A stretch of DNA of 64,000 nucleotides. Source: Candidatus Anstonella stagnisolia. Lineage in GTDB: Archaea > Micrarchaeota > Micrarchaeia > Anstonellales > Anstonellaceae. Each line of letters opens with the position of its first letter. The first letter of the stretch is position 1. A program made the translations under genes and the position numbers. The DNA lies in the NCBI GenBank assembly GCA_902384585.1, contig CABMCJ010000004.1, positions 322,086 through 386,085 of the forward strand, in the 5' to 3' direction. The notes below the pieces were generated by a model, which saw only the letters and a list, made by a program, of their open reading frames with translations, ran no database searches and was not told the origin of the DNA. Shown piece after piece: positions 357 through 45,574 of this stretch.

Positions 357-489
357 GTACCCGAACCGCATGTACATATTTGGGCATTTTGAGGTATATA
401 AGGGTTGGCGGAAAGGCGTATAAAGGGACTAAAATGGGAAGGATGTGGGGCAAAAATGCCTTAAAAAGGTTGCGAAAGGCATAAAAAGG

Positions 490-18151: not shown

Positions 18152-18258
18152 GGGCCGATAGCTTAGCCTGGTTGGAGCGTTCGACTGATAAATTTTTGCC
18201 CTCAGGGGCGAAAACTTTTGAAATCGAAAGGTCGGGAGTTCAAATCTCCTTCGGCCCA
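18152..18258 (+). tRNA. tRNA-Ile (anticodon GAU) with a 32-nt intron at 37/38
   Basis: Hand fold: acceptor GGGCCGA/TCGGCCC, D stem GCTT/GAGC, anticodon stem TTCGA/TCGAA with loop CTGATAA, T arm GGGAG-TTCAAAT-CTCCT, discriminator A. Intron about 18191..18222. No encoded CCA. Confidence 0.9.
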
Positions 18259-20618: not shown

Positions 20619-20776
20619 AGCCCCGTCGTCTAGCGGCCAAGGACACTGGGCTTTGAACAACCCTTTTTGCGCCTCCAGATGGGCACGGCGCAAAAAGCGT
20701 TGACGGAAACGTCAACAGAAGATGAAAAGGGTTGCGAAGAAACCCAGTTACAGCAGTTCGAATCTGCTCGGGGCTA
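20619..20776 (+). tRNA. tRNA-Gln (anticodon UUG) with an 85-nt intron at 37/38
   Basis: Hand fold: acceptor AGCCCCG/CGGGGCT, D stem GTCT/GGAC, anticodon stem CTGGG/CCCAG with loop CTTTGA-[intron 20657..20741]-A, T arm AGCAG-TTCGAAT-CTGCT, discriminator A. A relaxed bulge-helix-bulge can be drawn (CUUU/GAAG central helix with GAA and AAA bulges). Confidence 0.88.
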
Positions 20777-42847: not shown

Positions 42848-43705
42848 TTATTGCAGCTCGTCAAGTATTTTGCTTATGTCCACGTTTTCTATTGGGCGCT
42901 TGCACGTTGGCATCTCGGAAAGGTGCGGGATGCCGTCCTCGTAAGTGGGCTTATCCTCCTTGTAGAAAACCCCGATTGGGATTTTGTCGCCCCACTCAAA
43001 AGTTTTTGCAAATGCAGCCTGCTTGTCCTCCGCATTGTGGTTCTTTTCATCAAGCTTGTACACGCGCTGCATGAAGTATTGGTAGGTATTTAACTTGTTG
43101 AAAGTGACGCAGGGCTGCAGCACGTCTATGAGGGAAAAGCCCTTGTGATTTATGCCGCCGAGTATTGTATTTACCATGTGGGGCAAATCCCCTGAGAAGG
43201 TGCGCGCAACGTAAGTAGCGCCCGAGGAAATCGCAAGCGCCAGCGGGTTCACAGGGTCTTCAAGCACCCCGTGCGGCGTGCTCTTGGATTTGTAGCCTTT
43301 TTCGCTTGTGGGCGAAGTCTGCCCTGTTGTAAGCCCGTACACCTGGTTGTCGTGCACTATGTAAGTGATGTCCAGGTTGCGGCGCATTGAATGTATGAAA
43401 TGCCCCATCCCGATTCCGTATCCGTCGCCGTCGCCTCCGACTGCGATTACTGTGAGGAGATGGTTGCCCAGCTTAACGCCGGTTGCGACTGGAAGCGAGC
43501 GGCCGTGCAGGGACTCGTATGCATACGTTTTCATGAAATGCGGGAGCTTTCCGGAACAGCCTACTCCGGAAACAACTACTGTGTCCTTTGGGTCTATCTC
43601 GCTTTTTGCAAGCGCGTTCTTTAGGGATATCAGGATTGGGAAATTCCCGCAGCCTGGGCACCATTCGGGCGCGTGGCCGCTTTCGTATTGTTGGACTGTT
43701 GCCAT
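42848..43705 (-). CDS. korB: 2-oxoacid:ferredoxin oxidoreductase beta subunit (TPP-binding)
   Basis: MATVQQYESGHAPEWCPGCGNFPIL...GVGCSG...GGDGDGYGIG. Start at ATG 43705. The 21 extra codons of the track ORF lie in the insert. Confidence 0.92.
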   Translation of the reverse strand: MATVQQYESGHAPEWCPGCGNFPILISLKNALAKSEIDPKDTVVVSGVGCSGKLPHFMKTYAYESLHGRSLPVATGVKLGNHLLTVIAVGGDGDGYGIGMGHFIHSMRRNLDITYIVHDNQVYGLTTGQTSPTSEKGYKSKSTPHGVLEDPVNPLALAISSGATYVARTFSGDLPHMVNTILGGINHKGFSLIDVLQPCVTFNKLNTYQYFMQRVYKLDEKNHNAEDKQAAFAKTFEWGDKIPIGVFYKEDKPTYEDGIPHLSEMPTCKRPIENVDISKILDELQ

Positions 43706-43778
43706 AAGATTACCTACTGATATAATTTCCGTCAACGCTTTTTGCGCCGTACCCGCCTGGAGGCGCAAAAAGGGTTGT
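43706..43778 (-). other. 73-nt insert in the korB start region; its first 53 nt (43778..43726) are homologous to the tRNA-Gln intron
   Basis: Minus strand ACAACCCTTTTTGCGCCTCCAGGCGGGTACGGCGCAAAAAGCGTTGACGGAAA versus intron 20657..20709, which differs at 3 positions, all in the loop between CTTTTTGCGCC and GGCGCAAAAAG. Confidence 0.85.
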
Positions 43779-43826
43779 GCACCATTCTGGCGCGTGGCCG
43801 CTTTCGTATTGTTGGACTGTTGCCAT
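43779..43826 (-). repeat. upstream duplicate of the first 48 nt of korB (opens a 38-codon uORF)
   Basis: Identical to 43658..43705 except for one synonymous position (CCA versus CCC). It starts 8 nt after the korA stop, which is the expected natural korB start position. Confidence 0.9.
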
Positions 43827-43834
43827 ATTATCGC

Positions 43835-45574
43835 CTATTGCCATCCTGCCATTTTCTTTATCCTGCCCACCACATCTGAAACTATGAAGGGCCTGCCGTC
43901 GTATTTGAGGTAGGTGTGCTCTATTAGGATGCCGGTTTTCTCACGGATGAGGTTGTGCATCTGCCCGGTGCTGTTGAGCTCAATCACCATGCATTTTTCA
44001 ATCCCGTTCAATGCTGCCTTCACTTCCTTGTCCGGGAAGGGGGATGCCCAGAGTATTTGTATTGCCTTGAGCTTTTTCCCTTCTTTGCGAAGCACCTTGA
44101 GCGCCTCAAGCGCGGCGCCTTTTGTTGAGCCCCAGAAAACAATTGCGGCCTTTGCATCCGCATCCCCGTATATTTTGGGCGCGATTAGGGAGCGGGGGAT
44201 GTTTGCGAGCTTTCGAGCCCGCTTGTCAACCTGGTTTGTGCGGTCCTGGGCACGCTCGCTTGTAAAGCCTGTTTCGTCGTGCTCGTAAGAGGAGGCAACG
44301 TGCAGCCCGTTTGGCTGCCCGGGGAAGCAGCGCGGCGAGATGCCATCGGACGCCAATTCGTGCCTCTTGAAATTTTCAGCATTTTGCATTTGGGAATCCT
44401 GCATTATTTTTCCGCGCAGTATTTTCACTTTTGAATCGTCAAACCTGCCCGTTGTCACGATTTGCTCTGCCAAGTGCTTGTCTGAGAGCATTATTGCGGG
44501 GGTTTGGGCTATTTCAGCCCAGTTGAGCATGTCTATTGCGCCAAAGAAGCACTCGTCAATATCGCCTGGGCAGAATACGAGCCTTGGGAATTCCCCCTGG
44601 GATGCGTGCAGCGCGAACTGGAGGTCTGCCTGCTCAGTGTAAGTGGGCATGCAAGTTGAAGGGCCGGGGCGCATTACGTCCACTATCAGGACCGGCTGCT
44701 CGCTTAGGCCCGCAAGCCCGAGCGCCTCTGTCATGAGGCTGAAGCCGCCGCCGGAGGTTGCAGTCATTGCGCGGCAGCCCGTGAACGCTGCGCCGCACAG
44801 CATGTTTGCGGCTGCGATTTCGTCCTCCGCGTGCTTTACAACCATTTTGTATTCGCGCTCGTGCGCTGCCATGTAGTGCAGCACCGATGAGGAGGGGCTC
44901 ATGGGGTACTCTGCAACGAACTTGCAGCCGCCCTTTAATGCGCCGATGCAGATTGCCTCGTTGCCGTTAAGGAGTATTTGGTTTTTTGAAGGCAAGCGCT
45001 TTGCGAGGAAAGGGATTTGGGCTTTTGAATCCCTTGCATTGTCAAAGCCGCACCTGCCTGCTGAAATGTTCTTCTTTATGATGTCGTCGCCCTTCTTTGA
45101 GAAGAGTTTCTTTAGTACGTCCTCAAGCACCACGAAATCAACGCCAAGCAGGGAAAGGGCTGCGCCAACCGCGACTGTGTTGAGGAAAACTTCGCCCCCG
45201 GTTTTCTGCGCGCAGGAGTACATCGGGATGGGGACGTATTTCACATCCTTGCGGAGCTTGGACACGTCCACTTTTGTTTTTTCAGAATCGTATATTATTG
45301 CGCCATCCTGCGCAACCTCGCCTGCGTGCAGCGTTATTGTCTCGTCGTTGAGAGCGATTAGAACGCTAATCCCGCCATCAAGCGCATAAATTTTTTGTGC
45401 GCTTGCGCGCACTGCAAAAGTATTGTGCCCGCCGCGTATGAGGGATGGGTAGTCGTTCTCGCCAAAAACGTTCAGGCCCAGGTGCTGGAGGCATTTTCCG
45501 AGCATTAAGCCTATTGTCATAACGCCGGAGCCTGCCTCGCCGCCCACTTTCAACGTGAATTCGTTTTCCTGCAT
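43835..45574 (-). CDS. korA: 2-oxoacid:ferredoxin oxidoreductase alpha subunit (fused gamma-alpha type)
   Basis: 579 aa with an N-terminal gamma-like domain (KVGGEAGSGVMT) followed by alpha domains. Adjacent to korB. Confidence 0.92.
   Translation of the reverse strand: MQENEFTLKVGGEAGSGVMTIGLMLGKCLQHLGLNVFGENDYPSLIRGGHNTFAVRASAQKIYALDGGISVLIALNDETITLHAGEVAQDGAIIYDSEKTKVDVSKLRKDVKYVPIPMYSCAQKTGGEVFLNTVAVGAALSLLGVDFVVLEDVLKKLFSKKGDDIIKKNISAGRCGFDNARDSKAQIPFLAKRLPSKNQILLNGNEAICIGALKGGCKFVAEYPMSPSSSVLHYMAAHEREYKMVVKHAEDEIAAANMLCGAAFTGCRAMTATSGGGFSLMTEALGLAGLSEQPVLIVDVMRPGPSTCMPTYTEQADLQFALHASQGEFPRLVFCPGDIDECFFGAIDMLNWAEIAQTPAIMLSDKHLAEQIVTTGRFDDSKVKILRGKIMQDSQMQNAENFKRHELASDGISPRCFPGQPNGLHVASSYEHDETGFTSERAQDRTNQVDKRARKLANIPRSLIAPKIYGDADAKAAIVFWGSTKGAALEALKVLRKEGKKLKAIQILWASPFPDKEVKAALNGIEKCMVIELNSTGQMHNLIREKTGILIEHTYLKYDGRPFIVSDVVGRIKKMAGWQ

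Follow-up and report, generated by a model that had tools for sequence, protein, structure and literature searches.

The gene for the beta subunit of 2-oxoglutarate:ferredoxin oxidoreductase (korB) in the analysed stretch of Candidatus Anstonella stagnisolia DNA, a window of 64,000 nt, carries its start twice, and the two copies are separated by 73 nt that begin with a 53-nt hairpin element belonging to a widespread archaeal family. We think it probable that this element, a propagating one, inserted into korB together with a leader of about 20 nt and with duplication of its target, that it is left unspliced in the mRNA, and that translation passes it by way of a short upstream open reading frame (uORF). 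The locus is a real and unusual feature and provides the clearest footprint of how the element family moves. All coordinates given below are those of the window, and L001 to L078 denote comparison loci from other assemblies. The window has a GC content of 50.3%, the value published for Ca. Anstonella stagnisolia (PMC8561730).

The duplicated start of korB

The genes concerned lie on the minus strand. The korA gene (579 aa) ends with a TAG stop at 43835..43837 and is followed by an 8-nt spacer, GCGATAAT, that contains a Shine-Dalgarno (SD)-like AGGCGAT (43827..43834), and by a first copy of the korB start consisting of the ATG plus 45 nt (43779..43826). Next comes the 73-nt insert (43706..43778), made up of the 53-nt element (ACAACCCTTTTTGCGCC-loop-GGCGCAAAAAGCGTTGACGGAAA, 43726..43778) and a 20-nt leader, TTATATCAGTAGGTAATCTT (43706..43725), with an SD-like AGGTAAT. 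The second copy of the korB start (43658..43705) is the real one and runs on into the remainder of korB (42848..43705, 285 aa from the downstream ATG), with TAGGTAAT immediately ahead of its ATG. The first copy supplies the first 16 codons of a uORF of 38 codons (43710..43826), which crosses the element and ends at a TAA (43712..43710) 4 nt short of the korB ATG. This layout, including the uORF and its stop, is that of the original prediction, and every coordinate re-checked on the minus strand agreed to the base.

The repeat measures 48 nt, or 49 nt with the preceding T, and its copies differ by the single mismatch already reported (CCA/CCC, both Pro). With 98% identity over this length and a BLAST E value of 1e-20 within 64 kb, it did not arise by chance. 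KorB homologues, of which the named ones are from Micrarchaeota/Anstonellales, are uniformly about 285 aa long, so the downstream ATG is the true korB start. The element entered between korB codons 16 (TGC) and 17 (CCA), within the conserved W-C-P-G-C-G motif. A simple tandem duplication is ruled out, as korA precedes the first copy and korB continues past the second. A promoter in the insert (TTATAT) was also considered and set aside, being badly placed and not kept in other lineages.

A tRNA-Gln intron with the same element

The first 53 nt of the insert (ACAACCC...GACGGAAA) are 94% identical by BLAST within the window to positions 20657..20709 of the plus strand, 23 kb away, and a mismatch-tolerant search of the 64 kb found these two copies of the element only. 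The second copy forms the first 53 nt of an 85-nt intron (20657..20741, plus strand) at the canonical position 37/38 of a tRNA-Gln(UUG) gene (20619..20776, plus strand), which is overlooked by default ARAGORN and by Rfam. This is a textbook bulge-helix-bulge (BHB) intron, bracketed by a strict hBHBh' motif with an outer helix of 6 bp, central CTTT/GAAG, bulges GAA and AAA and an inner helix of 12 bp, and its excision gives a clean 73-nt tRNA-Gln(ttg). The first nucleotide of the korB insert is the one right after the predicted 5' splice cut; the reported coincidence between the left edge of the insert and the first nucleotide of the intron is therefore exact, being fixed by the strict motif and the clean spliced tRNA. 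Homology extends as far as the GAAA loop in helix three of the intron; the distal intron sequences have no counterpart in the korB copy. The earlier view that all 73 nt are foreign holds for the first 53 nt, which match the element family, but not for the last 20, a leader of uncertain origin.

Two weaker resemblances were noted in the window. A tRNA-Ile(GAT) gene (18152..18258, plus strand) has a different intron, with a T-run/GC/loop/GC/A-run hairpin, TTTTTGCCCTCAGGGGCGAAAA, that lacks the CAACCC and GCGTTGACGG boxes and may be distantly related to the element or a decayed form of it. The sequence ATAAGGGTTGGCGGAAA at 398..414 (plus strand) matches the 3' box of the element with 3 mismatches, has no 5' box nearby, and is probably a chance match, 0.25 such matches being expected per shuffle.

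The insert and one copy of the repeat together make 121 nt, which were considered as a BHB intron of the korAB mRNA, removed by the tRNA splicing endonuclease and RtcB ligase as in crenarchaeal cbf5. The insert shares its first nucleotide with a genuine BHB intron of this genome, which favours such a reading. Removal of any 121-nt period would restore the gene, and Micrarchaeota have a broad-specificity epsilon2 endonuclease (PMC3239211). Between direct repeats, however, excision of exactly one period through a BHB requires a palindromic tetramer as the central helix, and the candidates tried (TATG, GGCC, CGCG, GCGC, GTGC) had flanking helices of 0-1 bp in the window and were equally weak in L001. 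In a relaxed scan around the korB element of the window, L068 and L069, the best bracket had a 2-bp outer helix and every shuffled control did equally well or better, whereas genuine tRNA introns of the family scored 5-8 bp; the strict motif of the tRNA-Gln control has h = 6 and h' = 12. Excision is also unnecessary for restoring the frame, as the downstream copy, which has an ATG and a leader of its own, yields the full 285-aa KorB and is where homologues begin. Loss of the 121 nt from the transcript, a possibility implied earlier, is not supported, there being no BHB motif for that excision. On the motifs present, the korB element is not an intron and is not spliced from the korAB mRNA, and splicing of the 121 nt is scarcely credible.

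The korB site in related genomes

Comparison of the korAB loci of relatives, proposed earlier as a way to find the empty site, showed the korB site to be filled in four other Micrarchaeota lineages, with a 48-nt or an 18-nt duplication, and empty in one close relative, L070 (...tggTAAtcctATGGCAAC..., read as korA-TAA-tcct-ATG-korB). The 4-nt distance between the uORF stop and the korB ATG had been listed as a consequence of the insertion; it is real but not novel, since the empty site already shows this geometry with the native korA stop. L069 has the GGTGC/ACAACCC junction and the 48-nt duplication of the window, and its element is identical at 53/53 positions save for a 48-nt nested loop insert. 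L068, with a korB 99% identical to that of L069, has the same site and duplication with another stem variant of the element (GCTCGC type). The identical loci L001, L024, L071 and L073 carry an 18-nt duplication, which the 48-nt form would give on loss of 34 nt between two ACAA, and L076-78 carry an 18-nt form whose copies mismatch at 2 positions. More distant relatives (L002-L004) have ordinary korA-korB junctions with a 17-nt spacer or a TGATG overlap.

The coding identity of korB between lineages is 81-87% and the loci fall into two clusters, one of the window, L068/69 and L076 and the other of L001 and L070; the element is found in both. From these relationships, the simplest history would be one ancestral gain followed by precise loss in L070 via the flanking repeats, with independent gains at the korB site as the alternative. 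A gross recombination between the clusters as the origin of L076 is ruled out by korA identity. Empty and filled sites in related genomes are as expected of miniature inverted-repeat transposable elements (MITEs), with korB as the single site examined for this.

The nested insertion of L069 lies in the apical loop of its korB element (L069 208..255) and is made up of a pair of small hairpins, GCAACCtttGGTTGC and GCAGACGtttGCGTCTGC; the uORF stays in frame across it, and no second copy of it occurs in the sequences examined. L068 and L069 (JGI Ga0172369/Ga0172370) have the same leader and duplication beside their 99% identical korB genes and differ in the element variant, so that either conversion from another locus has exchanged the element or it was inserted anew.

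A second copy made by the assembly process, through a de Bruijn graph loop or a strain chimera, was considered, since the window genome is represented by a single assembly and contigs break in or beside the repeat in L068, L074 and L075. The two copies nevertheless differ at one base both in the window and in L069, and the architecture occurs, with lineage-specific details, in five lineages assembled by different groups with different tools, the four besides the window coming from NCBI, ENA, JGI and Logan assemblies. No difference separates L001, L024, L071 and L073, which come from ENA, NCBI and Logan assemblies. We therefore attach next to no weight to an assembly artefact.

Concerted evolution of the repeat and origin of the leader

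Comparison of the lineages shows differences, mostly synonymous, at up to 7 of the 48 nt, and within a genome the two copies differ at 0-1 of 48 and share the substitutions specific to their lineage. The copies of the 18-nt form can diverge (2/18 in L076). This pattern, with long copies alike within a genome and short copies free to drift, fits homology-dependent gene conversion. Because the two copies of each genome bear that genome's own substitutions, the korB start was duplicated from the target and not imported. The insertion had been said to have brought or generated a replacement gene start; it generated one, by target duplication, and did not bring it in.

The element itself is identical in the window and L069 although their korB genes are 86% identical (P about 4e-4 under equal rates). 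This identity, together with the other variant in L068, indicates that the element is constrained or exchanged between loci. The last 9 bases of the leader, GGTAATCTT, equal the native junction of korA stop and spacer in L069 (p = 0.004 among 12 tests), a match which suggests that the duplication once included the korA stop.

A widespread family of hairpin elements

The consensus of the element is CAACCCTTTT, a variable hairpin and AAAAGCGTTGACGGAAA(A). The family was searched for with the exact pattern CAACCCTTTT-N20-40-AAAAGCGTTGACGG in one-per-species genomes, metagenomes and viral contigs, which gave 30 genome loci and 32 metagenome loci, or 62 distinct copies. The copies are from DPANN and other archaeal assemblies; the genome hosts include Iainarchaeum, Micrarchaeota, Aenigmatarchaeota, Altiarchaeia, Bathyarchaeota and others, and 2-4 copies in one genome are frequent. 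The korB insertion is thus not unique: it belongs to a large family of elements that behaves alike at other gene ends. The original prediction knew of no described element with this behaviour, and our literature searches likewise yielded no published description of the family, which is widespread and apparently undescribed. Rfam had nothing at its gathering threshold for the element, and a weak match to the Ocean-V RNA (16.8 bits, E 1.8) was dismissed, being absent from 17 other loci.

Because the search pattern itself fixed the conserved flanks, which are invariant by construction, a mismatch-tolerant search was used in place of a covariance model. Several features are independent of the pattern. 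Nearly every copy has a hairpin in its interior, unrelated in sequence from copy to copy (mean z = -1.7 relative to shuffles), and AAA follows GACGG in 54/54 copies; the compensatory changes in the stem and the mirrored tails described below likewise owe nothing to the pattern. The terminal inverted repeat forms the stem CAAC-C-CTTTT / AAAAG-C-GTTG, with a 3' tail of 7-8 nt, ACGGAAA(A), outside the repeat. In diverged copies recovered by the mismatch-tolerant search, the outermost stem pair covaries as C:G, U:A, G:C and A:U (CAAC/GTTG, TAAC/GTTA, GAAC/GTTC and AAAC/GTTT). Folding of the hairpin gave no clear strand preference, with equal energies for the two strands and 40 versus 21 G:U pairs.

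In AT-rich copies (L006, L008, L009, L012, L030, L034, L035, L067) the purines that follow GACGG are a mirror image of the purine arm of the stem. Such a mirror-repeat tail is a parallel complement of the CCTTTT... arm and might engage in base triples or minor-groove docking. In one sediment lineage (L037-L040, L057) the element lies within a larger composite repeat that has a second hairpin, GGGGGAC...GTCCCCC, and forms short arrays adjoining a tRNA-Tyr.

RNA genes and duplicated gene ends

Most copies of the element form the 5' part of tRNA introns. Intron-aware ARAGORN found 16 tRNAs containing it, all in sense orientation (16:0), and further tRNA copies were seen by eye at D-arm and T-loop positions. 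An RNase P RNA gene (L055 308..632) carries a copy in a 78-nt insert of the P3 loop; it has no splice bracket and is thus probably a helix expansion. A signal recognition particle (SRP) RNA gene (L018 1553..1926) has a copy in a 123-nt insert. At a 5S rRNA gene the element abuts the 3' end in sense orientation (L067 1047..1208, with the same flank in L008), and other copies follow tRNA 3' ends.

Besides korB, at least 5 copies have a gene end regenerated by flanking duplications of 18 to about 60 nt. The duplicated stretches comprise the last codons and stop of a hexapeptide transferase gene (24 nt, L044), the 3' ends of genes for fibrillarin (29 nt, L010), SecY (about 60 nt, L009), tRNA-Arg (18 nt, L013) and tRNA-Ser (22 nt, L014). 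Duplications of host sequence that are not gene ends accompany the element in L057, at the flank of a second, different copy (34 nt), and in L061, at a tRNA T-loop in a tandem array (23 nt). In 6/6 gene-end cases, a small sample that includes korB, the intact gene is on the GACGGAAAA side of the element and the orphan copy on the CAACCC side. L013 and L014 are on two contigs of a Sulfurovum bin (JAIVYC01), so that an archaeal element stands beside tRNA genes in a bacterial bin; these look like mis-binned DPANN contigs.

Duplicated gene ends are also made by integrative elements, which in archaea duplicate 15-60 nt of their target and regenerate the gene ends they enter. The 48-nt copies could accordingly be the left and right attachment sites (attL/attR) of a larger integrase-bearing element of the SSV/pNOB8 type that carried the korB start and was mostly deleted down to 73 nt. 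The tRNA 3'-end duplications of L013 and L014 resemble such sites, and a model of tRNA disruption by integrative elements exists (PMC3293823). The distance between the flanking repeats is just 57-121 nt in all cases, however, with no integrase gene or kilobase-scale element, and the piece retained is always the same hairpin. The substitutions shared by the two copies of each genome speak against an imported start, and the exact-pattern scan found zero matches to the element on viral contigs. This origin is very improbable.

We also regard as distinctly unlikely a one-off replication accident without any mobile element, in which fork stalling with template switching or microhomology-mediated break-induced replication copied the 53 nt from the tRNA-Gln intron. 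The nascent strand would have left korB after codon 16, copied the intron and re-annealed upstream. Template switching classically leaves a templated insert flanked by a duplication whose length varies, there is ACAA microhomology at the junction of the 18-nt form, and forks could be stalled by the hairpin or by the mirror-repeat purine tails found in some copies. Recurrence of a random donor is not expected, however, and the same 50-nt element was inserted at no fewer than 5 unrelated gene ends in unrelated genomes as well as in many tRNA introns. The GGTGC/ACAACCC junction has no microhomology, and two strains with 99% identical korB have different variants of the element at the same site.

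Probable translation through the element

In all five filled lineages the uORF stop lies 4-10 nt before the true ATG. The uORF has 38 codons with the stop at -7 from the true ATG in the window, 34 codons and -13 in L068, 50 codons and -13 in L069, 24 codons and -7 in L001, and 24 codons and -8 in L076; the native korA stop of the empty site L070 is at -7. Although its length has changed three times independently (by a 6-nt indel in the leader, by the nested insert of 48 nt, and by 34 + 2 nt), the uORF has stayed in the frame that meets the leader stop, and both ATGs have an SD-like motif ahead of them. Read in phase with korB, the sequence is free of stops and would yield an N-terminally extended KorB. 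A conserved uORF peptide is ruled out, since the 48-nt and 18-nt forms do not share the frame in which the element is read. From this arrangement, ribosomes are probably relayed from korA to the uORF and on to korB by termination-reinitiation.

Prokaryotic termination-reinitiation coupling has similar stop-start distances, here 2-8 nt between korA and the uORF and 4-10 nt between the uORF and korB, and the native TAA-N4-ATG is kept. A relay through an element-derived uORF of 24-50 codons would be unusual by comparison. Every filled lineage has an ATG shortly after the korA stop, but the assembly L072 lacks it. The end of korA in the window reads TGG-CAA-TAG followed by GCGATAAT (43827..43840, minus strand), where relatives have TGG-TAA and 2-4 nt; the korA stop is displaced by one codon in this genome and the spacer before the uORF ATG has gained the SD-like AGGCGAT.

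Proposed history and mechanism of spread

The element may have entered korB between codons 16 and 17 in an ancestor of a clade of Anstonella-like Micrarchaeota, accompanied by a long direct duplication of the target of at least 48 nt, possibly reaching back across the korA stop. This duplication would have rebuilt a complete korB start and leader downstream of the element, and regeneration of the start would explain how an insertion was tolerated in a core enzyme gene. The orphan upstream copy would retain its ATG near the korA stop and open a short reading frame translated through the hairpin as far as the leader stop. Gene conversion would hold the two 48-nt copies alike, and recombination between them could delete the element precisely. 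We infer from the repeat structure that the duplication arose at insertion, as a target-site duplication, and that its length is what lets insertions at gene ends survive.

Several features of the sequences point to an RNA intermediate, namely the 5' end at a splice site, the A-rich 3' end, the variable duplications, the extra bases at 5' junctions and the sense orientation in RNA genes. Several of the duplications begin with A-runs, AAA(A), and 5' junctions have a few extra bases. A more specific version, which we put forward only tentatively and consider unlikely as it stands, is that DPANN archaea turn the RNA of excised tRNA introns back into DNA, forming a mobile BHB-intron family akin to short interspersed nuclear elements (SINEs). 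The 5' splice end would set the 5' end of the element, priming at the A-tract would set its 3' end, and chimeric or target-primed synthesis of complementary DNA would make the long flanking duplications. Genes for tRNA, RNase P RNA and SRP RNA would gain new introns and helix expansions from such a family, which could also enter the ends of essential protein genes without lethality. Template switching at structured sequence, or an enzyme acting at the DNA level, are alternative mechanisms that we leave open.

The likeness to SINEs and other retroposons without long terminal repeats (non-LTR) covers the 5' end fixed at the intron's 5' splice site, where the RNA is processed, the A-rich 3' end, target duplications that are variable, sometimes long and in several cases begin in A-runs, the heterogeneous 5' junctions and the sense orientation. 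Unlike in SINEs, the A-tract is just 3-9 nt long and part of a conserved box, and we know of no target-primed retroposition of the SINE/non-LTR type in archaea. With MITEs the family shares its small size, lack of coding capacity, terminal inverted repeat, several copies per genome, flanking target repeats and the occurrence of empty and filled sites. MITE duplications are fixed at 2-10 nt, whereas those of the element are variable at 18 to about 60 nt, often with extra nucleotides between repeat and element, and within RNA genes the element is strictly sense (16:0). We know of no autonomous partner or transposase for it. CRISPR repeat duplication by Cas1-Cas2 (24-48 nt) and casposon insertion (14-15 nt, often at tRNA or gene 3' ends) also duplicate a long stretch of target; in both the length is fixed by the integrase, whereas here the duplications vary and the inserted DNA is one conserved hairpin.

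Nearest to the family are the transposing BHB introns of archaeal tRNAs, such as those of Thermoproteales (cited in PMC3239211), and a tRNA disruption model has been described (PMC3293823). These introns occur near-identically in different tRNAs of one genome, at canonical and non-canonical positions and in hosts with broad-specificity splicing endonucleases, features shared with the present family. The present family differs in being a defined 50-nt module found across phyla, also in RNase P and SRP RNA genes and in protein operons, and in having long flanking duplications and no splice motif outside RNA genes. By the literature searches made, none of these traits has been described for transposing BHB introns.

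Several observations weigh against the history proposed for korB. The insertion is read from its end products alone: no enzyme, donor intermediate or fresh insertion was seen, and no systematic search for a partner was made. Most copies of the element, those in tRNA introns, have no flanking duplication, and the duplications recorded (18, 18, 22, 24, 29, 34, 48 and about 60 nt) are not of one short fixed length, a range that to our knowledge no transposase yields. The conservation of the family is overstated, as its flanks were imposed by the search pattern, and the 48-nt form of the window is known from one assembly. The leader before the second copy was compared with each genome's own korA end as a possible decayed copy of it, and the match was not significant (p = 0.78, 0.63, 0.19); only the GGTAATCTT of the window gave a signal, against L069. 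As to the uORF, retention of its frame is expected by chance as often as about 1 time in 27, and in L072 (about position 522; ENA ERZ27254845), an independent assembly of the L001-type junction, AGG replaces the uORF ATG, either as a natural variant without a uORF start or through a sequencing error. This AGG and korB's own SD-like leader imply that the uORF relay may be dispensable.

Implications and annotation

The gain and spread of archaeal tRNA introns is a long-standing question, and transposition has been proposed from the similarity of intron sequences alone. At korB and other gene ends the same intron module is seen outside RNA genes with the footprints of insertion, that is, long duplications, defined ends and extra junction bases. 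The matching empty site, and the polymorphism of the site between 99% identical strains, make the mechanism of intron spread testable. A duplication long enough to rebuild the start or end of a gene is a simple route to a harmless insertion in an essential gene, and a natural archaeal uORF relay between two subunits of a core enzyme would follow from the arrangement at korAB.

The locus also has a practical side, as gene callers may mis-start korB and they miss the intron-bearing tRNA-Gln. A 306-aa open reading frame with a TTG start (42848..43768, minus strand) begins inside the element and extends korB upstream, and may be reported with this wrong start. The JGI call of 300 aa in L068 reflects the same mis-start of korB.

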